Shown here: positions 647-29,268 of the stretch, piece after piece
Layout of the letters: every line of letters starts with the position of its first letter
Position numbering within the stretch: the stretch's first letter is position 1
NCBI GenBank assembly: GCA_963803835.1
Contig: CAWDOI010000016.1
Span: forward strand, 3,956 to 67,955
Source of the DNA: an uncultured Acidobacteriota bacterium
Lineage (GTDB): Bacteria; Acidobacteriota; Terriglobia; Acidiferrales; UBA7541
Direction: 5' to 3'
DNA length: 64,000 bases
The notes under the pieces: model-generated
Databases searched by the model: none
Told to the model about the DNA's origin: nothing
Seen by the model: only the letters and a program-made list of their open reading frames with translations
Position numbers and translations under genes: made by a program

Positions 647-654
647 AAGCTTTG

Positions 655-1005
655 ATGCGTTTGGCTAGACAAATTCTTTTGGGCATGCTGGCAATCGCTC
701 TCTGGGCGTATGCAGTGGACTGCGGGGCCACAACGCCAGCGCAGGCGGTGCAGTGCTGCAATTCCATGCCATGTTCATCGCACGGCCATCATGGTCAGGA
801 TTGCTGCAAGACTATGCCGGCAATGCACGCGCCTTTCGTGCAGCCGTCATCGGTAAATAGTGCTTCCAACTCGCCCACCGTATTTGCAATTTTGCCTTTC
901 GCTAGCGAATCTCGTGGCTTAGATTCCGCTCCGCAAACTATCGCGACGCAATCCCACGCTCCACCCATCTTCCTCACTACGGCTCGTTTGCCTCTTCGAA
1001 TTTAG
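655..1005 (+). CDS. small secreted Cys/His-rich protein (possible metal-binding)
   Basis: Signal-like N-terminus MRLARQILLGMLAIALWAYA, then QCCNSMPCSSHGHHGQDCCKTMP. First gene of a co-directional cluster. Start is ATG 655 (TTG 652 is the alternative). Confidence 0.5.
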   Translation: MRLARQILLGMLAIALWAYAVDCGATTPAQAVQCCNSMPCSSHGHHGQDCCKTMPAMHAPFVQPSSVNSASNSPTVFAILPFASESRGLDSAPQTIATQSHAPPIFLTTARLPLRI

Positions 1006-1076
1006 CCTGTTCTCCAGTCGCCCCCGGCTTGATGCATTGGTGTGTTTGGGAATTTCTATTTCTACTGGAGGAGTTC

Positions 1077-2033
1077 GTGAGAGTTCGAAAGGCAATTTGC
1101 TTTGCATGGGCGCTGCGAGTGTGTATGGCGCTCGCCCTATTTTCTTGTGCTCACGCTGTCCGAGGGCAAGGCCCTGCCCCGGAGACGGCCCCTCCGTTGT
1201 TCCCCGGTGGAGGACTCTTTTCCTACAATTCCGTCTTCACTACACGCGGATTAATGCCGGAATCAGTGGGGAATATTCCTCTGACTGCACGGCCTACTTT
1301 TTCACATGAAGGCGTCTTTAATTTCACGTGGGGGTTTTACCACAATTTTGATTTGACGATCCTCGTTCCGATAGTCACGAATCACTTTCAGAGCGCTAAT
1401 GAGTCAGCAATTGGGGGAACAGGTCTTGGTGATGCGATGGTGCTGGTGAAGTACCGCTTTTATCGACGAGATTCGGAACGGGGGACAACGCAGGCATCCG
1501 CCACGTTCGGGCCGAAGGTTCGGACGGGCCGTACAGATTTGAGCGACGGAATTGACCGTCGCCTGCCTGCGAGCTTACAACCCGGATCGGGTTCTACCGA
1601 TTTCTTCATTGCGGCTAATTGGACTTACACCGGCCTTTTCAACTTTAGGCGTCTAGTCGCTGATGAGGATTTTCACTCGCTTTTGCGTACACAAGGATCA
1701 AAAACGACTCGCCTCGGCAGCGACATTGAATCACGTTTCTGGTTGTCGTATCGGCCCTATGAATCGAAGAACGTGACCCGCGAATGGTTCATCGGTCCGG
1801 TCTTGACTTGGCTGCACTCTCAGGATGACCGCATCGCGGGAGCCGCTCAGAGCGGCAGTGGGGGCGATTTGTTGCTTGCCGGAGTCACGACATACGCAGG
1901 GCTGCGTCCCGGAATGCACGTTTGGCTCGGGATGGATTGGGACGTAGCGCATTCAACGGGTTCGATGTTCATGCCCGTGCGCCGTCACATTAGTTTCGGT
2001 ATCACACAGCAATTTCGGATGCATCTCTGGTGA
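1077..2033 (+). CDS. putative outer-membrane beta-barrel protein (resembles the MetA-pathway/'transporter' OMP family)
   Basis: GTG 1077 follows GGAGGAG (1067-1073). Signal peptide VRVRKAICFAWALRVCMALALFSCAHA. Alternating aromatic/polar strands, GDAMVLVKYRFY motif, C-terminal aromatic residue (LW). Family assignment is from memory only. Confidence 0.55.
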   Translation: MRVRKAICFAWALRVCMALALFSCAHAVRGQGPAPETAPPLFPGGGLFSYNSVFTTRGLMPESVGNIPLTARPTFSHEGVFNFTWGFYHNFDLTILVPIVTNHFQSANESAIGGTGLGDAMVLVKYRFYRRDSERGTTQASATFGPKVRTGRTDLSDGIDRRLPASLQPGSGSTDFFIAANWTYTGLFNFRRLVADEDFHSLLRTQGSKTTRLGSDIESRFWLSYRPYESKNVTREWFIGPVLTWLHSQDDRIAGAAQSGSGGDLLLAGVTTYAGLRPGMHVWLGMDWDVAHSTGSMFMPVRRHISFGITQQFRMHLW

Positions 2034-2044
2034 AAGGAGGAGCG

Positions 2045-2569
2045 ATGAATACGAGAAAACTCGCGCTATTGGCACTGCTCGGTTTGATGTTCGTGCCAAC
2101 CGCCCAAGCGCAAATCAAGCATATCGAAATGCGCGTCGAAGGCATGACCTGAAATTTTTGAGCATACGGGGTGAAACAGCACCTCGGACGCCAGTCTGGC
2201 GTTCAAAACGTCGAAGTTAGCTTGATCGATGGGAAAGTCGAAGTGACGCCGAAAGAGGATGGGCAGATTGACCCCGCTCAACTTCTCAAGGCGACTTACG
2301 ACAGTGGTGTGACCGTCGCAGAAATGGAAATGACCGCACAGGGAAAGATCGTGAAGGACTCTTCGGGCAATCTGGCATTGCAGGTTGAACCGAATCGGTC
2401 GTTTGCGTTCGCACCGAATGAGTTGTCGAAAGGGTTTGAATCTCTTGCGGATTCCCAAACGGTGGTCACAGTTCGTGGTCAGTTATTCAAGAAGTCGGGG
2501 GGCAAAAAGAAAATGGATGCGTCCGTTCCGCTGAAGCTGCTGATTCTCGAAGTGCAGAAGAAGGAATAA
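2045..2569 (+). CDS. periplasmic MerP-like heavy-metal-associated (HMA) domain protein with two in-frame TGA codons at the CxxC positions (predicted UxxU selenoprotein)
   Basis: ATG 2045 follows AAGGAGGAG. Signal peptide MNTRKLALLALLGLMFVPTAQA, then IEMRVEGMT-TGA(2150)-NF-TGA(2159)-AYGVKQHLGRQSGVQNVEVSLIDGKVEVT. The frame is continuous with ORF-track entry 2171..2569. The two TGAs fall exactly on the GMTCxxC cysteines. Confidence 0.7.
2168..2204 (+). promoter_or_regulatory. two adjacent hairpins, candidate bacterial SECIS element(s)
   Basis: Hairpin 1: GGGGUG (2168-2173) / CACCUC (2180-2185), loop AAACAG. Hairpin 2: GGACGCC (2186-2192) / GGCGUUC (2198-2204), loop AGUCU. Apical loops lie 24 nt after TGA-1 and 34 nt after TGA-2. 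Confidence 0.4.
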
Positions 2570-3097
2570 ATGCTGAGAATAAGTGTGTTGCTCCTGAGCG
2601 TCGCTGCGGTTGGACTCGCCGGGTGTAATCAGCATTCGGCGAGCCCGCCTCAGCCGAAGTCCATAATCGTCGCCGGTGAGATTGGCTCCCGCTTACCTGA
2701 CTTCACCGCGAAGGATTTGCAGGGACGCGGGATTTCCTCGGCTGAACTGCGTGGCAAAGTGGTGCTAATTGATTTTTGGGCGACGTGGTGTCAGCCGTGC
2801 AAACAGGAGATGCCGGGGTATCAGAAACTCCTAGATCGCTACGGTTCTCGCGGATTCGCAGTTATCGGATTCAAATTCGACACGATGGCGGATACAGAGA
2901 ACCCCGTTCTGTTCGCTAAGACAATCGAAGTTCGCTATCCGCTTGCCGTAGCATCAACCGACTTGAAGCAGAAGTTTGGCGGCATTGAAGGCTTGCCAAC
3001 AACACTGCTATATGACCGACAAGGAATACTCCGCAAAAAGATCATCGGGTTTGAATATACGGATGTCATTGAATCGGATATAAAGCAACTCTTCTGA
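2570..3097 (+). CDS. TlpA/ResA-like thioredoxin-fold thiol:disulfide oxidoreductase lipoprotein
   Basis: Lipobox LAGC. The motif FWATWCQPC contains the CxxC. The ATG directly abuts the stop of the HMA gene (TAAATG). Confidence 0.85.
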   Translation: MLRISVLLLSVAAVGLAGCNQHSASPPQPKSIIVAGEIGSRLPDFTAKDLQGRGISSAELRGKVVLIDFWATWCQPCKQEMPGYQKLLDRYGSRGFAVIGFKFDTMADTENPVLFAKTIEVRYPLAVASTDLKQKFGGIEGLPTTLLYDRQGILRKKIIGFEYTDVIESDIKQLF

Positions 3098-3750: not shown

Positions 3751-3975
3751 ATGCCGGACGAGGAGTGGATCAAGAAACTTGAAGACGGCAGGAAGGTGAA
3801 ATTCATCTACCAAGAACTTCCGGAAGACGGGGCTTTCATCACCGCCCAAATTGAGGGTAATGAGGTCGTCTATTCAGTCGTGTTGGCAAAAGCAAGAAAC
3901 CAGCTCAGTCGCGAAGATGTTGAAAGCCATTTCAAAAGCGAGCTTTCAAAGAAATCGCACGGCTCAATTTGGTGA
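3751..3975 (+). CDS. hypothetical small protein
   Basis: ATG 3751 follows AGGAG. 74 aa, MPDEEWIKKLEDGRKVKF... No family recognised. Confidence 0.35.
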   Translation: MPDEEWIKKLEDGRKVKFIYQELPEDGAFITAQIEGNEVVYSVVLAKARNQLSREDVESHFKSELSKKSHGSIW

Positions 3976-4148
3976 CGGCTTGACAAAGAATAGAATCAAC
4001 GCAGACTTCCCCAACATATTGGATTATCCAAGTCTCGTGTCGCTGCGGGAAAGAGTAGGCCGTGCGGCAGGGGCAAGGATCGCTGATGAAAGAAAATCGA
4101 ACAAAAAGCCCTCTGAAAGAAAGCTCTCATTAACGCGAAATCCTTGAC

Positions 4149-4358
4149 ATGGCAAAGGATCGCATTCCGACGCGCCCTTCAATTAGCCCGCTAACCTTGC
4201 CCTGTCCGTCGTGCGGCGCTGAGCCGGGCAAACCCTGCGAACCTTCATCGGAGGGCCATCCCGAAGTTGTGCACGTCGCACGGATCAATGCCGCCGCCAA
4301 AATGGACGTGGCGACGAAGAAAAGCCGCCGCCGCCCAACAACCCATTGTGAGTTTTAG
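4149..4358 (+). CDS. small Cys-rich zinc-finger-like protein
   Basis: CPSCGAEPGKPC...HPEVVHVARI motif followed by a basic tail. No SD sequence seen. Confidence 0.35.
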   Translation: MAKDRIPTRPSISPLTLPCPSCGAEPGKPCEPSSEGHPEVVHVARINAAAKMDVATKKSRRRPTTHCEF

Positions 4359-4449
4359 TGCCTGTGGCGGTCTGTGTAGCCGCATACATGAAAACTTTAG
4401 CTGGTCTTCGCCCGTTTGTACGCCTAATCTCCCGACCAAGGAAGATAAC

Positions 4450-4943: not shown

Positions 4944-5135
4944 TTAAACCAACCGCTTGGGCGAGCGAGTGATCTTGTCGAAGAACCGCTTGTCGCAGTC
5001 CGAGCAACGATAAGGGCTCAGCCCAATTAACCGGTATATCGTGGCTTCAAGAATGCCCTTGCGCACAGAACGTCGTAGCGATTCGCTACCGCACCGCGGG
5101 CACACGTGTACTCGCTTTCGAATATCGTCCGCCAT
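4944..5135 (-). CDS. zinc-ribbon protein, paralog A
   Basis: 63 aa with CPRCGS...CSDCDKRF (two CxxC pairs). Paralog of 7798..7989. Confidence 0.6.
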   Translation of the reverse strand: MADDIRKRVHVCPRCGSESLRRSVRKGILEATIYRLIGLSPYRCSDCDKRFFDKITRSPKRLV

Positions 5136-5222: not shown

Positions 5223-5498
5223 TCACACTGGGGTAGGCTCTTCAGCCCCGACGCTCGCTTCTATCCCATACTTTGCGAGGATGCGAATAATTTGTTGGTC
5301 TCGTATGGCACGGGTTCGATACACGATGGCATTCGTTCGGCCCCTTGCGCTCTCATCAATAAGCATCATCTTCCCGGTAAGCGTGAAAGAAGGAACATGC
5401 TCTGCCTTCAGTTCGTCTAACAAGCGTTCCCATGTTTCCTTGCGTAGCGTCCCTGCACCGAAGATGTCGATATGGTCGTGCCAAACAGTGGCGTCCAT
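5223..5498 (-). CDS. hypothetical protein
   Basis: ATG follows AGGAGAG. 91 aa, no family recognised. Confidence 0.5.
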   Translation of the reverse strand: MDATVWHDHIDIFGAGTLRKETWERLLDELKAEHVPSFTLTGKMMLIDESARGRTNAIVYRTRAIRDQQIIRILAKYGIEASVGAEEPTPV

Positions 5499-5633
5499 TG
5501 GTCTCTCCTACTCAGGAATCGTTGTCACTCCCGGTCGCCTGATTCCGAAGGATAAATTCCACCAACGCACTCGACAGATAGTCGAGGAAGAAACACATCA
5601 GTCGATTCCCGCATCGCGTCCTAAGCTGGGTAC

Positions 5634-5840
5634 CTATTTCTTCTTCCAAAGTTCCAGTAGTTCGCGGCCATTCTTAGTGATCGAGATCGCAAGATATTCA
5701 CGTTCGTGCGACTGCATATTGGTAACGTCGCTCACGGTGATGTACCCGCGTTCGTGCAAGAGCTTAATACTCGGTCGGTCGGGCTGCTCGCCTCTGGAAA
5801 ATGCCTCTAATGCTCTTATGATATCTTCAGTTTCCGTCAT
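5634..5840 (-). CDS. hypothetical protein
   Basis: ATG follows GGAGG. 68 aa, MTETEDIIRALEAFSRGEQPDRPSIKLLHERGYITV... Confidence 0.5.
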   Translation of the reverse strand: MTETEDIIRALEAFSRGEQPDRPSIKLLHERGYITVSDVTNMQSHEREYLAISITKNGRELLELWKKK

Positions 5841-5915
5841 CCCCCCCCTCCTTCAGAAGTCAAGATCAAGCTCGTCGAATGCCCGCTTGCTGCTCAGGGC
5901 CGCTACGGATAACCG

Positions 5916-6086
5916 TCAAGAGCGCCCCTTCAATTCACCGATATCCAGTTCAATACCGCGCAGAGCGTCAGCGAGCGCGGAAAGACCGTTGACCACGTTC
6001 CACATTATCGGGTCTGTATCGCGATCTATCCTTTTGAGCGCTTCTTGAAAACTAGATCGAGCCGCATTCGTCGCATTTGGATTCAT
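5916..6086 (-). CDS. hypothetical small protein (56 aa, below the ORF-track cutoff)
   Basis: Own translation: MNPNATNAARSSFQEALKRIDRDTDPIMWNVVNGLSALADALRGIELDIGELKGRS. The ATG overlaps the stop of 6083..6253 (ATGA). Confidence 0.3.
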   Translation of the reverse strand: MNPNATNAARSSFQEALKRIDRDTDPIMWNVVNGLSALADALRGIELDIGELKGRS

Positions 6087-7797: not shown

Positions 7798-7989
7798 TTA
7801 GATCGAACGCTTCGGTGAGCGAGTGATCCTGTCGATAAATCTCTTGCCGCAATCTGAACAGCGATAAGGGCTCAGCCCAATTAACCGGTATATCGTGGCT
7901 TCAAGAATGCCCTTGCGCACAGAACGTCGTAGCGATTCGCTACCGCACCGCGGGCACACGTGTACTCGCTTTCGAATATCGTCCGCCAT
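7798..7989 (-). CDS. zinc-ribbon protein, paralog B
   Basis: MADDIRKRVHVCPRCGSESLRRSVRKGILEATIYRLIGLSPYRCSDCGKRF... Start taken at the MADD methionine by analogy with paralog A, not at the 133-aa ORF-track start. Confidence 0.6.
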   Translation of the reverse strand: MADDIRKRVHVCPRCGSESLRRSVRKGILEATIYRLIGLSPYRCSDCGKRFIDRITRSPKRSI

Positions 7990-7991
7990 AG
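7862..7991. repeat. 130-bp segment identical to 5008..5137
   Basis: See 5008..5137. Both copies are on the same strand, so this is a direct repeat. Confidence 0.9.
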
Positions 7992-8502
7992 GCCCTTTAA
8001 AAACAATGTTGTAAAGATGTGTCGTGGACGAAAAACGTTTGAGGAGGGACCAAATTTCGAACGCCGCCCTTAATCCGAAAAAGTCGCGGGCCGATTCTCG
8101 AACCCGCACCCCGATTATACGGAACCCCGAGTCTACGTACAAATACGGACGTAGTTCTACGGATTGACGCGAGAATCGGAGGGCGTAAAGTTGGCGCATT
8201 GCCCAAGGGCGTCCGTGCCCCTACACTTCGCCCTGCTGACAAGGCCGGGGGATTGTTGCTCGCGCTGGGTGGCAACCCCCGGCTGCACTGACTCGCGCGG
8301 TTCCGTTCTCGTGGGATGTAACTTTCTCTCGGTGGCGCGTATCTAATCTCTAGACCTCAGGTCTAAGAACCCCCACAGGGAAGCGGCGCACACTCGAATC
8401 AAAAACGTCGCTTCCCGTCCTTCTCTAATCTTGAGCTACAATCCTGTTATGACAGAACTTCAGCGCGCGATGGGCCGTTATGAACGATGAGAAGAGGACA
8501 AC

Positions 8503-11822: not shown

Positions 11823-11897
11823 TGGTAGGGATACGGGGATTCGAACCCCGATTGCCGGGTTGAGAACCCGGTGTCCTAACCCTTAGACGATATCCCC
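11823..11897 (-). tRNA. tRNA-Glu (anticodon CUC), CCA encoded
   Basis: Hand-folded cloverleaf. Acceptor GGGGAUA/UAUCCCU (G1-U72 wobble), U8, D stem GUCU/GGAC, anticodon stem CCGGG/CCCGG with loop UUCUCAA, T arm CGGGG-UUCGAAU-CCCCG, then A-CCA. Confidence 0.9.
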
Positions 11898-17185: not shown

Positions 17186-20011
17186 ATGCCCGAATCGTCT
17201 CCACTCTCTGGCCGCACGATTTCGCACTACCGCATCCTTGAAAAACTCGGTGGCGGCGGCATGGGTGTAGTGTACAAGGCTGAGGACATCCGGCTCGACC
17301 GCGCCGTCGCTTTGAAATTCCTTCCCGATGATGTGGCGCACGACCCGCTGGCGCTCGAACGCTTCAAGCGCGAAGCGAAAGCAACTTCGGCCCTCAATCA
17401 TCCCAACATCTGCACGATTTATGACATTGGCGAAGATGCGGGGCGGACATTCATCGCGATGGAGTTTCTGGATGGCGTGACGCTGAAGCATCTTATCGGC
17501 GGAAAGCCCGTGGAGACGGAAGTTCTGCTCGGTTTGGCGATTGAGATTGCTGACGCTCTGGACGCTGCTCACGCAAAAGGCATCGTTCACCGCGACATCA
17601 AGCCCGCGAATATCTTCGTGACTTATTATGGGTCAGGGTTTGCAAGTACAAACCCTGAAACCCGGCGCGGGCAGGCGAAGTTACTCGATTTCGGCCTGGC
17701 AAAGATGACTCCGAAACTCGGCGCCCTGGGCTCGACCGAGACACTCTCCGCAGATGCCGCACCTTTGAGCGCGGAGCACCTAACCAGTCCTGGAACGGCC
17801 GTGGGAACAGTGGTTTACATGTCTCCGGAGCAGTTGAGCGCCAAAGACCTGGATGCATGCACGGATTTATTTTCATTCGGCGTCGTCTTGTACGAGATGG
17901 CTACTGGCACCCTGCCCTTTCGTGGAGAAACTTCGGCGTTGATCACGGATGCCATTCTCCACCGTGCGCCGGTGCCGCCTGTGCGACTGAATCCAGACAT
18001 TCCGGCGAAGCTCGAAGACGTGATCAACCGAGCGTTGGAGAAAGATCGCAATTTCCGCTATCAGCACGCGAGCGAAATGCGAGCCGAACTGCAGCGGCTG
18101 AAGCGCGACATGTCCTCAGGCGCGCTGATCGGATCGCCCACGGCGCAACCACAGTCGTCCTCGGCAGTCGCACCAGCGCAGCCCGCGCATCCCTCCGGCA
18201 GTTCCGTTGTCGTCGCCGCGGCAAGACAAAACAAAGGCGCCTTTGCTGCCATTGTCGTCGTCACGCTGGTGCTCATCGCCGGCGCCGGATACGGCCTCTA
18301 TTCGTTCCTGGGCAAAAGATCGCTCACGATTCCGTTCCAAACTTTCGCCGTGACGCAGGTCACAAACTCCGGCAAAGCTCTCTTTGCAGCCATTTCACCG
18401 GACGGGAAGTACATCGTCGCCGTGATTTTCGACAAAGGAAAATACAGTCTGTGGCTTCGCAACGTTGCTACCGGCAGCGACACCCAGATTCTCGCTCCTG
18501 ATTCCCTGCTTGTTGAGGCGGTCGCTTTTTCTCCGGACGCGAACTACATATTTTATCGAAAGGCCGTGGATCCCTCGCAGCAAGCGTACATTCTCTATCG
18601 CATGCCGGTGCTCGGCGGCTCGCCGCAACTCTTAGTCCGCGATGTGGATGGCGGTCCAACGTTTTCGCCCGACGGCAAGCGGATGGCATACATGCGGGCT
18701 AACGATCCGGAAGCGGGCAAATACCGCCTTCTTACCGCGAACCTGGACGGCAGCGATGAGAAAGTGCTGCAAATCGGCCCGCTGCCGTTTCCGGATTCGC
18801 TGTCCTGGTCGCCGGACGGGAAGAGCATCGCGTTTATCTCCTACTCAAGCGCCAAGGCGCCAGCGCAGATCAGTGTATTCGACATTGCTACTGGCAAGGA
18901 CACTGCGCTTACCGCATTTTCCGAAAGGACTTTTGCCGATCTCGCGTGGACTCCCGACGGCCGCGGTCTTATCGTCAATTATGCAGATCGCATGTCGGGC
19001 TCGACCAACCAGCAAATCGGCTATGTCGCCTATCCCGGTGGCCGATTCCAATCGCTTACGAACGACGTCCACGGCTATCAAGACCTGAGCATTTCTGCGG
19101 ACGGCAGGTCCATGGTTTCCGTCCAACGGCAGGAATCGGACTCCGTTCATGTGCAGCCTACGGCAGGCACAGGATCCTCCGTTGAAGTCAAGGGCCTGCC
19201 GAACCAGGGTGAGGTCGCCGCGATTGACTGGGACGCGCAAGGAAACTTAATCGTCGGAACGTCCTCCTCGCTTCTTCGATTGTCACTCGATGGAAGCCAG
19301 CAAACGACCCTACTGTCTGATCCCAGCGCCACTATCCTTTCGGCATCTGCGTGCAGAAACGGTGGCCCGATTCTGTTGGGTTGGTATCTGAGGGGGGGAC
19401 AAACCACGAAGAACATCTGGCGAGTAGATGCCGATGGGTCACATCCAATGCAGCTCACGAACGGCAAAGACGACGAGCTACCACTATGCGCGATGGATGG
19501 AAAGTCGGCCTACTACTTTGACGGTGGCAGCTTCCGCTTGATGAGAGAGCCCATCGATGGCGGGTCCTCGGAGCTCGTGGAAGGCAGCGCCATACCCAAC
19601 GGATATGTATGGGGAGGTCTGAACTTCTCCCCCGATGGCAAGTGGATTCCGGAGATCGCGGCCATATCGGATCCCGCCACTCATTCCGCTGAAAACAAAA
19701 TCGCTCTCGTCGACGTGAATGCCAAATCCGCAGCGTCCACGAGATTTCTAGTTCCGCGTCCCGATTTTGCGGAGCCCTTCTCGTTCACCCCCGATGGCAC
19801 GGCCGTGACGTATAACATTGTCGAGGATGGCGTCGGCAACGTCTGGGCGCAACCTCTCGATGGTTCGCCGGGACATCGGCTGACGAACTTTACCTCCGAC
19901 CGCATCAAGACATTCCGATTTTCGCCCGACGGCAAATCGCTCGCCGTCGCGCGCGAGCACATCGTTTCCGACGTCGTTCTCCTCCGCGACACCACCGCAT
20001 CATCCCGCTGA
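17186..20011 (+). CDS. membrane Ser/Thr protein kinase with C-terminal TolB/PD40-like beta-propeller (kinase 1)
   Basis: [28 protein letters not shown] and MSPEQ motifs. [23 protein letters not shown]. Repeated SPDGK blades. Confidence 0.9.
17633..17658. repeat. perfect 10-bp-stem palindrome inside the kinase 1 catalytic core
   Basis: TCAGGGTTTG-caagta-CAAACCCTGA. It lies within an in-frame stretch of about 39 nt, between [10 protein letters not shown] and DFG, that is absent from kinases 2-4. Confidence 0.85.
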
Positions 20012-20265
20012 CCAGACGGAGGTTCCAGGTCGAATGGTCCGCAGGGAAGCCCGGAAGTGAAGAGCAGTTGCTCGCGTGCCAGCGCTAAAGCGCAAGTGAT
20101 AGGCAAGGCTCGTAACGTAGCGCTGAAGCGCTCCTCCCCCGCATAAATGCGAGGGCTCCCACCGGAAGGTAACGACGTGCTGACAAATTCCCGCGGGCGC
20201 AGCCCTTCGAAACTCAGGATGAACAAGCAGCGCCCCTACGAGCGAGCCGGCGAAACGGTGGCGCG

Positions 20266-20294
20266 TTGACTTGCTGTTGGGCGCGGCATAACAT
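20266..20294 (+). promoter_or_regulatory. candidate promoter of kinase 2 (TTGACT-N17-TAACAT), 8 nt before the ATG
   Basis: TTGACT at 20266-20271, TAACAT at 20289-20294, ATG at 20303. Confidence 0.45.
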
Positions 20295-20302
20295 TCGCGC
20301 AA

Positions 20303-23203
20303 ATGCCCGAGTCGTCTCCACTCTCCGGCCGGACAATTTCGCACTATCGCGTGATTGAGAAAATAGGTGAAGGCGGCATGGGCGAAGTGTATCGCGCTCA
20401 TGACGACCAGCTCGACCGCGACGTCGCGCTGAAGATTCTTTCCGTGGGATTGCTCGCGGACGAAGCCGCGCGCAAACAATTTCGCAAAGAAGCTCTCGCG
20501 CTCGCGAAGCTCAATCACCCGAATATCGAGACCGTTTACGAATTTGGCTCTCAGGACGGCGTCGATTTCCTCGCGATGGAGTTGATTCCCGGCGATTCGC
20601 TACGCGAAAAGATCAAAGCCGGGCCGCTTGTGGAGAGAGAAATTGTGCGGCTCGGGATGCAACTTGCCGAAGGCCTGGCCGCCGCACACGATCAAGGCAT
20701 CATCCATCGCGATCTCAAGCCCGGGAATTTATTCGTCACGCCGGATGGCCGGTTGAAGATTCTCGATTTCGGCCTGGCACGATTGATCCGTCCGGAAGCC
20801 GCGAACGACGCGACGCGCAGCATCACGGTGGAGAGTGGCACGATTTCGGGCACTGTCCCTTACATGCCGCCGGAACAGTTGCGTGGAGAGCCGACCGACG
20901 CGCGAAGTGACATTTACTCGGCGGGCGCAGTTCTTTACGAGATGGCGGTGGCCCAGCGGCCTTTTCCGCAGACGCAAGGGCCGCAGCTGATGGGTGCGAT
21001 TCTGCACAGAGCTGCGCCGCCGCCGAGCGCCTCAGGCGCGCACATTTCTCCAGCGCTCGACGGCGTAATCCTGAAGTCACTCGAAAAGGAGGCATCGCAG
21101 CGTTACCAGACGGCCCGCGAACTTCGCGTCGCGCTCGAAGGAATATCGCTCAGCTCTACTGCGCTTTCGGCCGGGTCCGCGCCGGCCTCCGGCTCGGCCA
21201 TTTCTTCACCGGCCATGCCGGCATCCGCCGTCACGGCGGCCGAAATTCCCAAAGCCCACGGGCCGAAACTCTGGAAGATTCTCGTTCCCGCGATTGGAAT
21301 CTGGATCGTCGGGATTGTCGCCGTCAGTCTTTATTTCCGCTCGCATCACGCCGCGCCGTTGACCGAGAAGGACACCATCCTGCTGGCGGATTTTACAAAC
21401 TCAACCGGCGATCCTGTCTTTGACGGCTCGCTGCAGAAGGGGCTTTCTGTGCAGCTGGAACAATCGCCCTTCCTCAGCATCGTCTCCGACGAGCAAATCC
21501 AGCAAACCTTGAAGTTGATGGGCGAGAAGCCGGACGCCAAGCTCACGGGCCAGGTTGCGCGCGAGCTCTGCCAGCGCACCAGCAGCGCGGCAGTTCTTGA
21601 AGGCACAATCGCACAGATTGGCACGGAGTATTTGCTCACGCTGAAAGCAATCAACTGCACCAACGGGCGATCGCTGGCGAGCACGGAAGCCGAGGCAAGC
21701 GATAAGAATCACATCCTCGACGCGCTCGGCAAAATCTCTACGGATATGCGCGCGAAGCTCGGAGAGTCGCTCGGCACGTTGGAAGAACTCGATACGCCGC
21801 TGGCGCAGGCCACCACGCCCTCGCTCGAAGCCCTTCAGGCCTATAGCCTCTCTGAGAAGATCGCGACGCAGAAGCTGGACATTGCCGGCGCGGCGTCACT
21901 GGCTCAGCGAGCCATAAGCCTCGATCCGAACTTCGCCGTGGCGTATGCCAGCCTCGGCATCTATTACTACAACTTGGGCGAGACGGCGCTGGCGACGGAA
22001 AACATTCGCAAGGCCTACGAACTTCGGGAGCATACGAGCGAGCGGGAAAGACTCGGCATCGAATCGATTTACTACCTCGGTGCGATTGGCGACCTGGAAA
22101 GAGCGCGCCAGGATTATGAGCTCTGGGCGCAGACCTATCCGCGAGATTTCGCTCCACTGAACAATCTTCGCGTCATCTATGTCAACCTCGGACAATATGA
22201 CAAAGCGTTTGCAGAGGGGAGCGAGGCGTTTCGCGCCCGTTCGCCGGCCGGCTGGACATACGTAGTCCTCGCTCAAAGCTATCTCTTTGTGAATCGCATA
22301 GACGAGGCCCGTGCGACGATCGACGAAGCGCAGGAGAAGAAGTTTGATTTGGCGACGCTGCACTTACTCCTTTATCAAATCGCCTTCTTGAAAAACGATC
22401 CGCCACTGATGGCGCAACAGGTGACCTGGCTAGAGGGCAAGCCAGGCGCGGAGGACGTGATGCTGGCGTTCGAGGCGGATACTGCTGCGTTCTCGGGGCA
22501 TCTCGCGAAAGCCCGTGATTTCTCGCGGCTCGCGGCGGAATCCGCCGGCCGCGTCCAACAAAAAGAGAGCTCGGCGACTTACGAAGCCGACGAGGCTTTG
22601 CGGGAAGCGCTTTTTGGCAATGCTTCTGAGGCTCGGCAGCAAGCCACGACGGCGTTGGCCCTTTCGACCGGCCGCGATGTGCAATACGGAGCGGCACTCG
22701 CGCTGGCCTTCGCCGGGGATACATCCCGAGCGCAGGCGCTTGCCGATGATTTGAACAAACGTTTTCCGGAAGACACCATCGTGCAATTCAACTACCTGCC
22801 CACGATCCGCGCTCAGCTCGCGCTCGACCGCAATGATTCCCGCAAAGCGATCGAGATCCTTCAGCTCGCTGCTCCTTACGAGCTGGGTTCACTCACACGC
22901 GCGAGCGTTTTTAATTTCATGAGCCTCTATCCCGTCTATGTGCGCGGAGAGGCATGCCTGGCTGCGCATCGGGCTGGCGATGCCGCGAACGAATTTCAGA
23001 AAATTCTCGATCACCGCACTGTGGTCTTGATGGAACCCATCGGCGCGCTCGCGCATCTCGGCCTCGCACGCGCCTATGCCTTGCAGGGCGACACCGCCAA
23101 AGCGAAAACCGCTTACGATGATTTCTTCGCGCTATGGAAGGACGCCGATCCCGAGATTCCCATTCTCATCGCAGCAGAAGCTGAATACGCCAAGCTGAAA
23201 TGA
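20303..23203 (+). CDS. membrane Ser/Thr protein kinase with extracytoplasmic domain and TPR repeats (kinase 2)
   Basis: IGEGGMG, VALKIL, HRDLKPGNLF and DFGLAR motifs. TM ILVPAIGIWIVGIVAVSLYF. C-terminal helical TPR-like repeats. Confidence 0.9.
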   Translation: MPESSPLSGRTISHYRVIEKIGEGGMGEVYRAHDDQLDRDVALKILSVGLLADEAARKQFRKEALALAKLNHPNIETVYEFGSQDGVDFLAMELIPGDSLREKIKAGPLVEREIVRLGMQLAEGLAAAHDQGIIHRDLKPGNLFVTPDGRLKILDFGLARLIRPEAANDATRSITVESGTISGTVPYMPPEQLRGEPTDARSDIYSAGAVLYEMAVAQRPFPQTQGPQLMGAILHRAAPPPSASGAHISPALDGVILKSLEKEASQRYQTARELRVALEGISLSSTALSAGSAPASGSAISSPAMPASAVTAAEIPKAHGPKLWKILVPAIGIWIVGIVAVSLYFRSHHAAPLTEKDTILLADFTNSTGDPVFDGSLQKGLSVQLEQSPFLSIVSDEQIQQTLKLMGEKPDAKLTGQVARELCQRTSSAAVLEGTIAQIGTEYLLTLKAINCTNGRSLASTEAEASDKNHILDALGKISTDMRAKLGESLGTLEELDTPLAQATTPSLEALQAYSLSEKIATQKLDIAGAASLAQRAISLDPNFAVAYASLGIYYYNLGETALATENIRKAYELREHTSERERLGIESIYYLGAIGDLERARQDYELWAQTYPRDFAPLNNLRVIYVNLGQYDKAFAEGSEAFRARSPAGWTYVVLAQSYLFVNRIDEARATIDEAQEKKFDLATLHLLLYQIAFLKNDPPLMAQQVTWLEGKPGAEDVMLAFEADTAAFSGHLAKARDFSRLAAESAGRVQQKESSATYEADEALREALFGNASEARQQATTALALSTGRDVQYGAALALAFAGDTSRAQALADDLNKRFPEDTIVQFNYLPTIRAQLALDRNDSRKAIEILQLAAPYELGSLTRASVFNFMSLYPVYVRGEACLAAHRAGDAANEFQKILDHRTVVLMEPIGALAHLGLARAYALQGDTAKAKTAYDDFFALWKDADPEIPILIAAEAEYAKLK

Positions 23204-23219
23204 TCCCGACTTTGGCGCG

Positions 23220-23248
23220 TTGACTTGGCGGAGCGGCCAGCATAAGAT
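23220..23248 (+). promoter_or_regulatory. candidate promoter of kinase 3 (TTGACT-N17-TAAGAT), 8 nt before the ATG
   Basis: TTGACT at 23220-23225, TAAGAT at 23243-23248, ATG at 23257. Confidence 0.45.
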
Positions 23249-23256
23249 TCGCGGCG

Positions 23257-26106
23257 ATGCCTGATTCCTCTTCACTCTCCGGACGAACAATTTCCCACTA
23301 TCGCGTCGTCGAGAAGCTCGGCGGCGGCGGAATGGGTGTGGTCTATAAGGCCGAAGACACCAAGCTGCACCGTTTCGTGGCCTTGAAGTTCCTGCCCGAT
23401 GGGCTCGCCAAAGACCATCAGGCCCTCGAGCGATTCCAACGTGAAGCACAGGCTGCCTCGGCTCTCGACCATCCGAACATTTGCACGATCTACGAGATTA
23501 GCGAAGAAGGCGGCCAGCCCTTCATCGTCATGCAGTTCCTGGACGGCCAGACGCTTAAGCACCGCATCTCGGGCAAGCCGCTGCCGATTGACGAAGCCCT
23601 CGACCTCGCCATCGAGATTGCCGACGGCCTCGATGCAGCGCACTCAGCGGGAATCGTTCACCGAGACATTAAGCCAGCGAACATCTTCATCACGAAGCGC
23701 GGCCACGCCAAGATTCTCGACTTCGGTTTGGCCAAGACACTGACCACTGCTTCCTCTGGATCGGCTACCGAATCACAAGCGACGGTGGATGCAGTCGCTC
23801 CAGAGCATCTCACGAGTCCCGGGAGCGCGATCGGTACGGTGGCCTACATGTCGCCGGAGCAAGTCCGCGCGAAAGAACTGGATGGCCGAAGCGATCTCTT
23901 CAGTTTTGGCGTTGTGCTTTACGAAATGGCGACAGGCACTCCGCCGTTCAGGGGTGATTCCACGGGAGTCATCTTCGACGCGATTATGAATCGTCCTGCC
24001 ATGTCGCCCCTCCGGCTGAACCCCGACGTTCCCGTGGAACTCGACCGGATCATCAATAAGGCTCTGGAGAAGGATCGCGATCTGCGTTGCCAGAGTGCCG
24101 CGGAATTGCGGGCCGACTTGAAACGGCTGAAGCGCGAGACCACATCGGGTGTGCAGAGCGGGACGGTCGCGGTGCAAACGGGATCGTCGGCGGCAGCGCA
24201 GCCCGCGGCGACAGATTCCGGCACGAGCGCTTCACGTGTTTCGGCCGTTTCAGCGGTTTCAACCGTTGCCCAGCCGGTGACGTCGCAGGTATCGGACAGT
24301 TCTGTCGCCGCCGCGGCCAAGCAGCACAAGGGCGCGCTGGCCGGCATTATCGTGGTGGCGCTTGTACTCATTGCCGGCGCGGGTTATGGGCTTTATTCGT
24401 TTTTGGGCAAGAAGCCGGCGGCGATTCCGTTCCAAGCCTTCGCTGCCTCGCAGGTCACAAATTCCGGGAAAGCTCTGTTCGCGGCGATTTCACCCGATGG
24501 GAAATTCGTGGTCAGCGTGATTGACGATAAGGGAAGATCGACTTTGTGGCTGCGGAATGTCGCTACCGGCAGCGACACACAGGTCCTCGCTCCCGATCCT
24601 GCCGTTATCGCGAGCCCGGCGTTCTCGGTTGACACGAACTATATCTTTTATCGAAAGGCCGTGGATGCCACACAGACCTCGTGGAATCTTTACCGGATGC
24701 CGGTGCTTGGTGGCTCGCCGCAGCGTTTGGTCGGCGACGTTGATTTGGGTCCGACCTTTTCCCCCGACGGCAAGCGCATGGCCTATATGCGAGGCAACGA
24801 CCCGGAAATCGGCAAGTACCGGATTCTTTCGGCCAATCTCGACGGTACCGATGAGAAGGTTCTTCTGATCGCTCCGCTACCGATTCCGGACGCGCTCTCA
24901 TGGTCTCCCGACGGGAAGAGCATCGCTTATGACTCTTACGCGAATAGCAAAGCGCCGGGACAGATCAGTGTGTTCGACATTTCCAGCAGCAAAGACACTT
25001 CCCTCACGGCGTTTCCTGACAGGGCTTTCATTGCTCTTGCCTGGTCCCCGGACGGCCGCGGCCTCCTCGTGAATTTTTCGGACCGTGCGTCGGGCTCGAG
25101 CAGCCGGCAAATTGGTTTCGTTTCTTATCCTGACGGCCGCTTCCAGTCCCTGACAAACGACATCCACGGGTATCGAACGCTGAGCATTTCAGCGGATGGC
25201 AAGGCCATGGTGTCGATTCAACAACAGCAGTCGGATTCGGTTCGCGTGCAGGCTTTGGGTGCCAACGGATCACCGATTCAAGTTCCTGGCATTCCGAATC
25301 AGGCAACCGTTCGCGGTGTTGATTGGGACAGCGGCGGGAACTTGATTGTTACGACTTCGACTTCCGTGCTGCGGCTGTCACCGGACGGAAGCCAGCAGAC
25401 GGCTCTACTCTCTGACCCCAGCGCTACTATGGGGTGGTCGTCCGCGTGCCGCAACGGTGGTCCGATTCTCTTGCAGTGGTATTTGAGGGAAGGTAAGACC
25501 ACCATAAATATCTGGAGGGTGGACGCCGACGGATCGCATCCCAAACAGCTCACGAACGGCAAGGATGAAGAGTTTCCGCTTTGCTCGCCGGACGGAAAGT
25601 GGGCCTATTATGTCGATAATGCCACCACCCACATTATGAGAGTCCCCATCGAAGGCGGAACTCCGGAGCTAATGGAGGGCAGCGTAGTCTCAAACGGGTT
25701 CATGGCAGAAGGCGCGAACTTCTCTCCGGACGGCAAGTGGATGCCGGAGATTGCGGCGTTCACGGATCCCGCGACGCAAACTGCCACCACCAAGGTTGCG
25801 CTGATCGATGTCAACGCGAATACCCTGGCATCCACGAAGTTTCTGATTCCACGTCCCGAGATTCGGCTCCCCATCGCCTTCACTCCTGATGGCAAGGCCG
25901 TGGCTTACACAATTGTCGAGAACGGCGTAGGGAACGTCTGGGCGCAGCCGCTGGATGGTTCACCCGGGCATCGACTGACGAACTTCGCTTCCGACCAGAT
26001 CCGCACATTCCAATTTTCGCCGGACGGCAAATCGCTCGGCGTGGTCCAACAGCATATTGTTTCCGACGTCGTTCTCCTACGAGACACCACCGCATCATCC
26101 CGCTGA
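23257..26106 (+). CDS. membrane Ser/Thr protein kinase with TolB/PD40-like beta-propeller (kinase 3, paralog of kinase 1)
   Basis: Same motifs as kinase 1. Long shared stretches such as [26 protein letters not shown], and an identical C-terminus [17 protein letters not shown]. Confidence 0.9.
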
Positions 26107-26246
26107 CGCAGACCGAGGTTCCAGGTCGAATGGGCCGCAGGGAAGCCCGGAAGTGAAGGTCAGTTGCTCCGACTTTGGCGCGTTGCCTTGAGTAAGTGTG
26201 TGGTCCGCCACGGAGGACTGGCCTACAAATGCAGTGACGCCGCGCG

Positions 26247-26275
26247 TTGACTTGGTCGAACGGCCAGCATAAGAT
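26247..26275 (+). promoter_or_regulatory. candidate promoter of kinase 4 (TTGACT-N17-TAAGAT), 8 nt before the ATG
   Basis: TTGACT at 26247-26252, TAAGAT at 26270-26275, ATG at 26284. Confidence 0.45.
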
Positions 26276-26283
26276 TCGCGCCG

Positions 26284-29268
26284 ATGCCTGAATCGCAATC
26301 CATGATCGGCCGAACCGTTTCTCACTATCGCATCGTCGAAAAACTTGGCGGCGGTGGGATGGGCGTGGTGTACAAGGCCGAAGATGTGAGTCTGCACCGG
26401 TTTGTCGCGGTGAAGTTTCTTCCTGACGATGTGGCCAGAGATCCACAAGCGTTGGCGCGATTTCAGCGAGAGGCGCAGGCGGCGTCCGCGCTGAATCATC
26501 CGAATATCTGCACGATCCACGAAATTGGGCAACAAGATGGCCAGCCATTTATCGTCATGGAGTATCTGGATGGGGTGACGCTGAAGCACCGAATCGCGGG
26601 GAAGCCGATGGAAACGGAATCGCTGCTGTCACTGGCGATTGAGATCGCGGATGCGCTCGACGCTGCGCATTCCGAGGGAATCGTTCATCGCGACATCAAG
26701 CCGGCCAATATTTTTGTGACGAAGCGGGGGCACGCGAAGATTCTCGATTTTGGGTTGGCGAAGACGCTGCCGTCCGCATCGACGATGTCGATGTCGGCGA
26801 CGCAGGATACGGCCGACGCGGTGTCGCCCGAACACTTGACGAGTCCGGGCAGCACGCTCGGGACGGTCGCGTACATGTCGCCGGAGCAGGTGCGGGCGAA
26901 AAATTTGGATGCGCGGAGCGATCTCTTCTCGTTTGGATCGGTTCTCTATGAAATGGCGACGGGGACGTTGCCGTTCCGTGGAGAAAGCTCGGGAGTTATC
27001 TTTCATGAAATTCTGGATCGCGATCCGGTTCCCGCGATTCGGCTGAATCCTGACCTTCCGGCGAAGCTCGAAGACATCGTCAACAAGGCGCTCGAGAAAG
27101 ATAGGGAACTGCGTTATCAGGGCGCGGCTGAAATGCGGGCCGATTTGAAGCGGGTGAAACGTGAGACGGAAACACGGTCCGGCGTATCGGCAGCCTCGGG
27201 GACAGTTGCGGTGGCGCAGGACAGCGGAACTCATTCGGTTGCGCAACAGACAGGGTCTGGATCGAGTTCGGTGTCGGCCGCTGCTGCAGTCCCGGCATCG
27301 TCATCCGCCGTGAAAGCTGCTGAAGCTCCGGTGGCCGGAGGGAAAAAACTCTGGAAGATTTTGATTCCTGCTGCTGTTGTTGTGGTGGCTGCGTTGATCG
27401 CGGGATTTTTCTACTTCCGTCCTCGTCCGGCGGCGACGTTGACCGAGAAGGACACCATCGTCCTCGCTGATTTCGATAACACGACCGGAGATCCCGTCTT
27501 CGACGGCGCCTTGAAGCAGGCACTGGCTGTGCAGCTCGGTCAATCTCCGTTTCTCAACATCCTCTCGGAGCGCAAAGTGGAAGACACTTTGCGGCTGATG
27601 GGGCGTCCGTCGAATGAGCGCGTTACTCGCGACGTAGCTAGAGAACTCTGCGTGCGCACAGGCAGCAAGGCGATTCTTTTGGGTTCGATTTCCAACTTGG
27701 GCGGGCAGTACGTGGTCGGCATCGATGCGGTCGGTTGCAGCACCGGGGACACGTTGGCCACCGAGCAGGAAGAAGCTTCGACGAAACAGGATGTGCTGAA
27801 AGCACTGAGTAAGGCAGCGTCCAGCATAAGAGGCAAGCTCGGCGAATCGCTGGCTTCCGTTCAGAAGTTCGACGTTCCCGTTGAGGCCACGACGACATCG
27901 CTCGAGGCACTGAAAGACTACAGTATGGGGATTACAACCGGCCGCACAAAAGGAGACGCTGCTGCCATTCCGTTCATGAAGCGTGCGCTCGAACTCGACC
28001 CGAATTTTGCCGCAGCCTATGCTGGCCTCGGGGTCGAATACAGCAATCTCGGACAAGCCAGTTTGTCGGCGGAGAACGTCAAGAAGGCTTATGCGCTGCG
28101 CGACCGCGTCAGTGAACACGAAAAATACCGCATCGCTGCCTTGTACTACAGCAACGTGACCGGGGATTTAGAGCAGGCGATTCAAGTCTACGAATTGTGG
28201 GCCAAAAGCTATCCGCAGGATATGGTGCCTCCGGGCACCTTGGGGAGCATTTATAGCGAGTTTGGGCAGTTCGACAAGTCTGTGGCTGAGACCCAAGAGG
28301 CATCGCGGCTGGAACCGAATGCAGTATTTGCTTATGCCAACCTCGCGCTGGATTATCTTGCACTGAACCGACCCGACGATGCGAAGAAAGCGATTGAGCA
28401 GGCTCAGCAGCGAAAGCTGGACGCCGATTTTTTACACTGGACAATTTACCAGGTGGCCTTTTTCAAAGGTGATGCACCGGAAATGGAGCGGCAGGTAGCT
28501 TGGGCTGCGGGGAAGCCTGGAAGTGAAGACATCCTGCTCTCTTTCCAATCCGACACGGAGGCGTATTACGGGCGGCTCGCGAAGGCGCGGGACTTCTCCC
28601 GGCGTGCGGTTGATTCGGCGGTCCGTGATGAATCGAAGGAAACGGCCGCGCTGTGGCAGGTGAATGCTGCACTGCGGGAAGCGGAGTTCGGCAACCCAGC
28701 GGCCGCGAAGCGAGGTGTTGAAGCGGCACTGGCGCTGGCTCCGGGCCGGGACGTGAAACTATTCGCCGCTCTCGCGCTGGCTCGAATCGGTGAAGCCGCT
28801 AGCGCAAAGGCCATCGTAGAAGAACTGGAAAAGAACGAACCGTCGAATACGATCCTGAAGGTCTACTGGCTGCCAACGATTAAGTCAGCGATTGCACTAA
28901 GTGCCAACAATTCCGCCCAAGCTGTGATGTTTCTCGAAGCGGCTGCACCTTATGAACTGGGCATCCCCCCACAACTGCAGTCGGGGACGATGTATCCGGT
29001 TTACATTCGCGGACTGGCTCAGCTAGCGGGGCACAACGGGGCTGCTGCGGCTACGGAGTTTCAGAAGTTTCTCGACCACCGAGGAATCACACTAAACTAC
29101 CCACTTGGCGCGCTCGCGCATCTCGGACTCGCTCGCGCTTATGCACTTTCGGGCGACACGGCTAAGGCGAAGGCTGCGTATGATGATTTCTTTGCGCTAT
29201 GGAAAGACGCTGATGCTGACGTTCCCATTGTTGTCGCCGCGAAATCCGAATACGCCAAATTGAAGTGA
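26284..29268 (+). CDS. membrane Ser/Thr protein kinase with TPR repeats (kinase 4, paralog of kinase 2)
   Basis: Kinase motifs, a TM segment and TPR repeats. The C-terminus [32 protein letters not shown] is shared with kinase 2. Confidence 0.9.

Follow-up and report, generated by a model that had tools for sequence, protein, structure and literature searches.

Can a reading frame interrupted by two TGA codons that stand only two codons apart specify a single protein? The question is raised by a locus in a 64,000-nucleotide stretch of DNA from an uncultured Acidobacteriota bacterium (contig CAWDOI010000016.1 of assembly GCA_963803835.1; the whole stretch is called the window below). There the frame opened by ATG 2045 runs to TAA 2567-2569 and is broken by TGA 2150-2152 and TGA 2159-2161 only. 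A previous reading of the sequence (the original prediction) proposed that both TGAs are translated as selenocysteine (Sec, U), and that the product is an exported heavy-metal-associated (HMA) protein in which two Sec residues take the place of the metal-binding cysteines. Our analysis leads to much the same view: it is very likely that 2045-2569 is one gene, which codes for an exported HMA selenoprotein with a UxxU motif and whose UGAs are read as Sec by means of SelB and a SECIS (selenocysteine insertion sequence).

The reading frame

The Shine-Dalgarno (SD) sequence, the ATG, the signal peptide, both TGAs, the open frame and the program-made open reading frame (ORF) 2171-2569, which is in the same frame as ATG 2045, were all found where the original prediction had placed them. 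The features of the gene are as follows.

2034-2042, forward strand: SD sequence AAGGAGGAG, 2 nt 5' of ATG 2045, read from the sequence
2045-2569, forward strand: candidate selenoprotein gene, 174 codons plus stop, with two in-frame UGAs (predicted Sec36 and Sec39)
2045-2110, forward strand: predicted signal peptide MNTRKLALLALLGLMFVPTAQA, with basic n-region, hydrophobic core and AQA cleavage motif, recognised by inspection
2129-2293, forward strand: HMA ferredoxin-like domain, residues 29-83 (Pfam PF00403, E=1.3e-8)
2150-2152, forward strand: first UGA (predicted Sec36), N-terminal metal ligand of GMT-U-NF-U
2159-2161, forward strand: second UGA (predicted Sec39), C-terminal metal ligand of GMT-U-NF-U
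2312-2566, forward strand: OB-fold-like beta-barrel domain, residues ~90-174 (modelled alone, pLDDT 79.6, b1-b2-b3-helix-b4-b5)

The two TGAs are separated by the codons AAT TTT, and the stretch QIKHIEMRVEGMT lies between the signal peptide and the first of them. A GGAGG-type SD sequence is also present 5' of the start in related loci. When the frame is joined across the TGAs and U is replaced by C, the protein matches PF00403 with 35.5 bits, above the gathering score of 24.8, which bears out the claim that the TGAs fall exactly on the two HMA ligands.

TGA is an ordinary stop codon in the source genome. It terminates 12 of the 25 longest non-overlapping ORFs of the window and is the commonest stop among them; the gene directly upstream also ends in an ordinary TGA (2031-2033). 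The stop codon of the candidate selenoprotein gene itself, counted in the window and in the 80 related loci described below (n=81), is TAG in 54, TAA in 25 and TGA in 2 sequences. The near-absence of terminal TGA may mean that UGA is avoided as terminator where the mRNA recruits SelB; chance is the other possibility.

Conservation of the two TGA codons

The main DNA set comprised 80 species-representative genomes (L001-L080), nearly all of them metagenome-assembled genomes (MAGs) of Acidobacteriota/Terriglobia from soils, peat and palsa. About 20 kb was taken per genome, and the related DNA amounted to 1.48 Mb in total. By similarity the window belongs with Terriglobia, L002 and L001 being its closest relatives in the set. 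The arrangement TGA..TGA was present in 79 of the 80 genomes and TGC..TGA in one (L079); in the main clade (81 sequences) the first TGA is kept in 80 and the second in all 81. The signal peptide, the QIKHIEMRVEGMT stretch and both intervening codons are conserved in frame in all 80 loci. Pairwise nucleotide identity across the region averages 82% with a minimum of 73%, thus the loci represent independent lineages and are not copies of one assembly.

The protein databases give a different picture of the same gene. A search of approximately 5.8 billion proteins found more than 100 close relatives (84-93% identity), each exactly 132 residues long. These entries, named 'hypothetical protein' or 'heavy metal-associated domain-containing protein' by their sources, correspond to the fragment that starts at GTG 2171, just past the second TGA. 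A minority of the relatives are full length (170-174 residues), carry the source name 'copper chaperone CopZ' and read GMTCNFCAFGVK; in P0004, P0008, P0019, P0028, P0030 and P0039 the motif is GMTCNFC or GMTCNYC, with a ligand Cys opposite each UGA. Two JGI entries (P0002 and P0005), called with a code in which TGA means Trp, run through both TGAs: GMTWNFWAYGVK. Among the top matches listed from this search there was no full-length protein annotated with Sec.

An exhaustive search with the 132-residue fragment against 1.84 billion representative proteins yielded 60 clusters only; the distant clusters have 38-51% identity, a length of about 130 residues and the same start point. In every distant member with readable DNA (L095, two paralogues in L096, L099, L100, L101 and L102/L103) a signal peptide is followed by GMT-TGA-N[FYQ]-TGA-A[YF]G. 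Main and distant sets together, about 90 assemblies keep both TGAs and contain no other stops or frameshifts, and the recurrence of TGA-N-[FYQ]-TGA across genomes is far beyond chance. The original prediction had named a pseudogene with further lesions and an assembly error among the ways in which it could fail; the retention of both TGAs across independent lineages excludes them. It had also suggested looking for orthologues with TGA at the same two codons, which the ~90 independent assemblies supply, and for Cys-containing orthologues, which do exist and occupy the same operon.

When metagenomes were scanned with the Cys form as seed, a sub-clade came to light that has the same HMA-TlpA gene order and contains CxxU proteins (L083-L087 and L089-L091), with TGC at the first ligand codon and TGA at the second, as well as CxxC proteins (L081, L082, L088 and L092). 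Two further full-length CxxC proteins, P0174 and P0179 (~30% identity), are placed near the base of the tree. In this tree, a rough neighbour-joining one rooted on P0174 (L104), the CxxU/CxxC group is nested in the UxxU radiation, and CxxC arises three times within CxxU. The nesting suggests that Sec reverted to Cys stepwise, position 1 being lost first. The gene immediately downstream, which codes for a TlpA-like protein, offers a comparison within the same genomes: the codons of its two active-site Cys residues vary freely between TGC and TGT, whereas the HMA ligand codons stay TGA.

Two observations on individual assemblies should be added. L096 (GCA_973680735.1) has two UxxU paralogues at one locus (3875-4396 and 5452-5961), with an NHL-repeat protein encoded between them and an AhpC/TSA gene after the second. 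Near-identical cassettes were found in L040, L052, L061, L070 and L071, which are MAGs labelled Dormiibacterota, Limnocylindria or Binatus; mis-binning seems to be a more likely explanation than horizontal transfer, because the genes are 76-82% identical to Terriglobia genes.

RNA hairpins downstream of the TGA codons

The original prediction pointed to two adjacent hairpins as SECIS-compatible.

2168-2185, forward strand: hairpin 1, GGGGUG-AAACAG-CACCUC, a possible accessory or spacer structure, weakly supported
2186-2204, forward strand: hairpin 2, GGACGCC-AGUCU-GGCGUUC, loop at 2193-2197, the predicted SECIS and the RNAalifold consensus

The second hairpin stood up well to the comparison. 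It is the RNAalifold consensus structure of the main clade. Synonymous variation among the 81 main-clade sequences collapses from +39 to +56 nt past the first TGA, where the codons CGC CAG TCT GGC GTT CAA are near-invariant even though four- and six-fold degenerate codons are among them. The normalised synonymous entropy of these six codons is 0.022 vs a gene-wide median of 0.62, a value reached in none of 20,000 permutations; the hairpin 2 window has the strongest synonymous suppression of the whole gene. Pairing is preserved in 99.6% of the cells in the main clade and in 97.4% in a set of 28 sequences that includes the distant members. In the latter set (alignment columns 46-64 correspond to window positions 2186-2204) the following pairs vary.

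Pair 46-64: G-C 19, C-G 4
Pair 47-63: G-U 17, G-C 6, A-U 5
Pair 48-62: A-U 17, G-U 11
Pair 50-60: G-C 26, A-U 1, G-U 1

The compensatory changes are those of pair 46-64 (G-C to C-G), which flips in the main-clade sequences L050 and L077 through two non-synonymous changes, and of pair 50-60 (G-C to A-U). Thus the covariation that the original prediction had proposed to look for in the downstream RNA was found, together with conservation, in hairpin 2. The loop occurs as AGUCU, AGGCU, UGGAA and UGGAU, the G in its second position (G54) being invariant, and most of the folded sequences have a minimum free energy (MFE) of about -11.3 to -11.8 kcal/mol. The bacterial SECIS (bSECIS) model has a stem of 4-16 bp, a loop of 3-9 nt, a UGA-loop distance of 16-37 nt, a G within the first two loop positions (typically N1-G-[G/U]-N-N2) and an MFE of -7.5 kcal/mol or lower (PMC13188914). 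With respect to the second UGA, hairpin 2 agrees with this model in every point (7-bp stem, AGUCU loop, 31 nt spacing).

Hairpin 1 fared less well. Its pairing is kept in 92% of the cells in the main clade and in 77% in the diverse set, no compensatory change was seen, its register is shifted in the L096a and L101 sequences, and neither of the first two positions of its loop is a G. Its codons are somewhat constrained, e.g. Val is always GTG. A further helix, UUUU/AAAA, that would enclose the two hairpins from outside seemed plausible from the main clade; it was rejected, as distant members do not conserve it.

We tried to use the CxxC forms as a control for decay of the hairpin. The control failed: these forms hardly differ from the CxxU forms, and the hairpin is still present in them. 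SECIS-like hairpins are likewise kept in close Cys-type relatives of UxxU hydrogenases (PMC13582414). Of the distant CxxC relatives, L104 lacks the hairpin and L105 has a partial one. Rfam, searched over 2100-2280 at the gathering threshold and with E up to 10, gave no SECIS family and a chance small RNA match only; this is expected, because bacterial SECIS elements are poorly modelled in Rfam. Two further scans, one for additional in-frame TGAs in redox motifs of the window and the other a mini bSECISearch of the 1.48 Mb of related DNA, brought up nothing but the CxxU genes and off-frame noise.

The selenocysteine machinery

ARAGORN detected one tRNA-Sec in the related DNA, in genome L018, on the same 973-kb contig as the selenoprotein gene and 7.6 kb upstream of it.

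2297-2391 of L018, reverse strand: tRNA-Sec, flanked by a fragment of an RND efflux permease on one side and a peptide-modification-cyclase-like TPR protein on the other; no adjacent sel genes

The assignment was confirmed by Rfam RF01852 with 65.8 bits vs a gathering score of 47. In this tRNA the D stem has 6 bp, the variable arm is long, the anticodon is UCA and the tail reads ...CACGCUUCC-G-CCA, that is, the discriminator is G73. The combination of G73, long variable arm and UCA indicates Ser/Sec identity rather than the U73/GCA identity by which CysRS recognises its tRNA (PMC8762117). Selenoproteins have been recorded in Acidobacteria (PMC1794560), and a UxxU hydrogenase has been reported from Acidobacteriota (PMC13582414). 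A probe for the Sec-containing formate dehydrogenase FdhF found nothing in the related loci. The only tRNA gene in the window is a tRNA-Glu (CUC) at 11823-11897 on the reverse strand.

Weighing the alternative explanations

The notion that both TGAs are read through as Sec to give one exported HMA protein is supported by the conservation of the TGAs, the Cys orthologues, the covarying hairpin and the L018 tRNA-Sec. We infer that it is Sec, and not Cys, that is inserted at both codons, that one SECIS serves the two of them, and that the TlpA-like protein has a role in the system. Several points weigh against this interpretation. The covariation of hairpin 2 comes from few events and concerns two of the seven pairs. 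Between the first UGA and the apical loop of hairpin 2 there are 40 nt, 3 nt more than the 16-37 nt range allows. The hairpin is intact in the four recent CxxC forms, and its loss after loss of Sec is seen only in the distant L104. No selA, selB or selD was found by tblastn with E. coli probes in the window and in the related loci (~10 kb around the cassette), where the SelD and SelB probes had been verified against PDB 3u0o and 5lzb and the SelA probe was unverified; the lone weak match, a GTPase in L077, proved to be LepA. Finally, it is from family resemblance and sequence features that we deduce the periplasmic location and which metal is bound.

Could the locus be a dead gene, two small ORFs (a 35-codon leader and a 132-residue protein from GTG 2171), or a product of sequencing errors? 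Every gene caller does split the locus, into 132-residue products and upstream ORFs of 35-42 residues. The split would, however, leave the 132-residue fragment without export signal and metal site, and nothing that resembles an SD sequence can be made out upstream of GTG 2171. Moreover, the TGAs, the intervening codons, the signal peptide and the HMA N-terminus are in frame in about 90 assemblies with 73-100% nucleotide identity, and the JGI calls made with TGA as Trp (P0002 and P0005) read straight through. We therefore give these explanations next to no credence, and on such comparative evidence we consider the pseudogene, split-gene and sequencing-error readings effectively refuted. A further question is whether the first UGA works as well as the second. 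The 31-nt distance between the second UGA and the SECIS loop fits the model and the 40-nt distance of the first does not, the CxxU state exists, the second UGA is the more persistent one, and competition of Sec insertion with the release factor RF2 is known (PMC4513850). One could thus imagine that only the second UGA is efficiently decoded as Sec, while the first mostly terminates translation or is passed by near-cognate readthrough, as a leaky or selenium-dependent attenuator that would yield a 35-residue peptide and little full-length protein. Yet 80 of the 81 main-clade sequences, and every distant member read, have the first TGA, it sits on a required ligand position that aligns with the essential Cys of the HMA site, and one SECIS has been argued to serve both UGAs in a similar geometry (PMC13582414). 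We regard a leaky first stop as highly improbable.

The two UGAs might also be recoded through SelB and the SECIS, with one or both read as Cys by a tRNA-ReC (SelC*) charged by CysRS, so that the product would be wholly or partly CxxC, CxxU or UxxC. Genes similar to tRNA-ReC were reported in ~56% of the genomes with UxxU hydrogenases vs ~2% of other Sec-type genomes, and either UGA may then be read as Cys (PMC13582414). The unusual SECIS spacing of the first UGA and the tolerance for Cys at position 1, as in the CxxU forms, would be compatible with such decoding. The one SelC-type tRNA in the related DNA, that of L018, on the other hand, combines G73 with a long variable arm and UCA and lacks the U73 that CysRS requires. 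A TGC codon would give Cys without costly recoding; nonetheless about 90 genomes keep TGA at both sites, and true Cys codons close by, in the TlpA-like gene, drift freely. Recoding as Cys is in our opinion improbable, and we retain the reading in which both UGAs specify Sec.

Domain structure of the predicted protein

In the AlphaFold model of a Cys-form orthologue (P0004; pLDDT 73.6) the N-terminus is disordered, and an HMA domain and a C-terminal domain rich in beta structure follow. Residues 1-19, which fall in the signal-peptide region, have pLDDT values below 50. The HMA part has the order beta-alpha-beta-beta-alpha-beta (strand 23-32, helix 39-48, strands 56-61 and 64-69, helix 77-86 and a further strand), and the ligands, residues 36 and 39, are in the loop after the first strand and at the start of the first helix. 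Among the Foldseek matches of this half are CopZ (2qif), Atx1, metal-binding domains of ATPases, and MerP (1osd, 1afi), with TM scores of 0.68-0.75 normalised to the target. The C-terminal domain has no Pfam match and gave only weak OB-fold matches in Foldseek (YgiW, single-stranded DNA-binding proteins, and SilF at rank 30; TM ~0.5). A CusF-like MxM motif (AEMEMT) noticed in this domain was dropped from consideration, as distant members do not conserve it.

The gene cassette

The selenoprotein gene is the third gene of a conserved cassette; the other members are the following.

652-1005, forward strand: cassette gene 1, located upstream in 72 of 80 loci, in the same orientation; its small product is rich in Cys and His and has a hydrophobic segment at the N-terminus (CCNSMPCSSHGHHGQDCC)
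1029-2033, forward strand: cassette gene 2, 334 residues, predicted outer-membrane beta-barrel; in 80 of 80 loci
2570-3097, forward strand: cassette gene 4, TlpA/ResA-like thioredoxin-fold lipoprotein with WCQPC; in 78 of 80 loci

The product of cassette gene 1 has a dense cluster of Cys and His residues (CCNSMPCSSHGHHGQDCCKTMP) and no Pfam or NCBIfam match; it is a plausible metal-binding partner. The barrel protein has no direct Pfam match either. It is 49% identical (E=7e-98) to a protein of L096 that matches PF13557 (Phenol_MetA_deg), a family of outer-membrane barrels. Cassette gene 4 matches the Pfam families AhpC-TSA (E=4e-21) and Redoxin, the ResA and TlpA models remaining below their cut-offs; its active site is always Cys across the genomes, and its start codon abuts the stop codon of the selenoprotein gene. 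Barrel and AhpC/TSA genes are neighbours of the distant UxxU and CxxC members as well.

Comparison with known systems

It is useful to compare the predicted protein with the families that it resembles. The original prediction knew of no described UxxU HMA/MerP protein. The motif does have a precedent: a UxxU metal-binding selenoprotein family is already known (NCBIfam NF041115; PMC13188914, PMC9312934). Like the protein studied here, NF041115 (UxxU_metal_bind) is a predicted bacterial selenoprotein family with an HMA-type module in which both Cys residues of CxxC are replaced by Sec, the two UGAs being 6 nt apart. The window protein scores 36.5 bits with this model, far under the cut-off of 95, with profile positions 1-47 of 74 aligned, and hence it is not a member. 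NF041115 proteins have about 74 residues, whereas the window protein has 174, including a signal peptide and the OB-fold-like domain, and its family occurs almost only in Acidobacteriota (Terriglobia), in a cassette with barrel and TlpA-like genes. A 2026 review lists no PF00403 family.

The term 'MerP-like' used in the original prediction describes a resemblance only. In both proteins the signal peptide precedes an HMA domain whose metal loop has the form GMT-x-xx-x, and MerP structures (1osd, 1afi) were among the Foldseek matches. Membership in the MerP family is another matter: the score with TIGR02052 is 35.8 bits vs a trusted cut-off of 92.55, Sec stands for Cys, there is an extra C-terminal domain, and a scan of neighbours with family models picked out no merR, merT or merA. 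The closest matches of the HMA half, in sequence (CopZ_AFE_1862, 48.6 bits) as well as in structure (2qif, TM 0.74), are Cu(I) chaperones of the CopZ/Atx1 type. The scores with the CopZ models NF047957, NF033795 and TIGR00003 (48.6, 42.7 and 35.8 bits) are below the respective cut-offs of 85, 91 and 62, and CopZ, unlike the window protein, is a cytoplasmic single-domain protein with Cys ligands.

The Group 4 [NiFeSe] hydrogenases of the UXXU type (PMC13582414) share with the window family two UGAs that are two codons apart in a metal-binding CxxC motif, a mixture of CxxU, UxxU and CxxC forms in one clade, and Acidobacteriota among the hosts. A single downstream SECIS was proposed to serve both UGAs of UxxU in these enzymes (PMC13582414). 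They differ in being an unrelated cytoplasmic enzyme subunit; furthermore, the tree of the window family points to UxxU as the ancestral state, and the UGAs of this family are separated from the SECIS by another conserved hairpin.

The cassette as a whole is reminiscent of the TlpA-ScoI/PcuC copper delivery system of Bradyrhizobium, in that the gene of a membrane-anchored TlpA-type thiol reductase lies beside that of a periplasmic metallochaperone with a dithiol (in the window a diselenol) metal site, which the reductase presumably reduces. The chaperone of the window has an HMA fold rather than that of Sco or PCuAC, the TlpA-like gene scores 80 bits vs the TlpA cut-off of 230, and no cytochrome oxidase genes were seen nearby.

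Proposed mechanism and significance

On the reading that we favour, UGA 2150 and UGA 2159 would be decoded as selenocysteine by SelB with Sec-tRNA(Sec), SelB being recruited by the hairpin at 2186-2204, which probably serves both UGAs. The pre-protein would be exported to the periplasm, and its mature form would comprise the HMA metallochaperone domain and the OB-fold-like domain. A soft metal ion, most likely Cu(I), possibly Hg(II), Ag(I) or Cd(II), may be held between the two selenolates. Candidate partners are the co-transcribed outer-membrane barrel and the small protein rich in Cys and His; the TlpA-like lipoprotein is a third and might keep the UxxU pair reduced.

A more elaborate version of this scheme combines two ideas, and we put it forward as a rather doubtful one. 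Hairpin 1 might be a collapsible spacer that allows one SECIS to decode two UGAs: with the ribosome at the first UGA, hairpin 1 would be folded and the SECIS about 14 nt away, and with the ribosome at the second UGA, hairpin 1 would be melted, leaving 24 nt. At the same time, the periplasmic diselenolate site might have been selected for the low pKa of Sec, whose side chains would stay ionised as ligands in the acidic periplasm of Acidobacteria of peat and acid soil, where a CxxC pair would be protonated. If true, this would amount to a new recoding geometry and to an ecological rationale for an extracytoplasmic metal-binding selenoprotein.

As far as can be judged from sequence data, we are in all probability dealing with a real, widespread and unannotated selenoprotein. 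What sets it apart is that it carries an export signal and an OB-like domain, belongs to a conserved envelope cassette and comes with twin hairpins. Proteins with two Sec residues in one metal-binding loop are very few, and it would be a secreted two-domain addition to them. Every annotation pipeline truncates the gene to a 132-residue 'hypothetical protein', and for this reason the use of selenium in Acidobacteriota, an abundant soil phylum, is probably under-counted. The natural series UxxU, CxxU and CxxC in one orthologous operon is well suited for asking what selenium contributes to metal binding, and the conserved hairpin pair offers a clean system for the question, left open for the UxxU hydrogenases, of how one SECIS could serve two UGAs six bases apart. 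Current understanding is not overturned by these results, since Sec/Cys pairs, UxxU motifs and SECIS hairpins in coding regions are all established.

Other features of the window

The ORFs between 3 and 9 kb of the window are small and poorly conserved, and this region shows no synteny with the 80 related loci, hence it may be a variable or mobile island. It includes two copies of a gene for a 63-residue protein with paired CxxC motifs (MADDIRKRVHVCPRCGSESLRR...YRCSDC), at 4944-5135 and 7798-8199, both on the reverse strand. The copies are near-identical except for the last few residues, and the second is located inside a longer ORF. Further downstream, at 17186-29268 on the forward strand, there are four tandem paralogues of 941-994 residues with 43-67% mutual identity, all of which end in TGA; one of them (tandem gene A) has an N-terminus of the protein-kinase type (...VALKFL).

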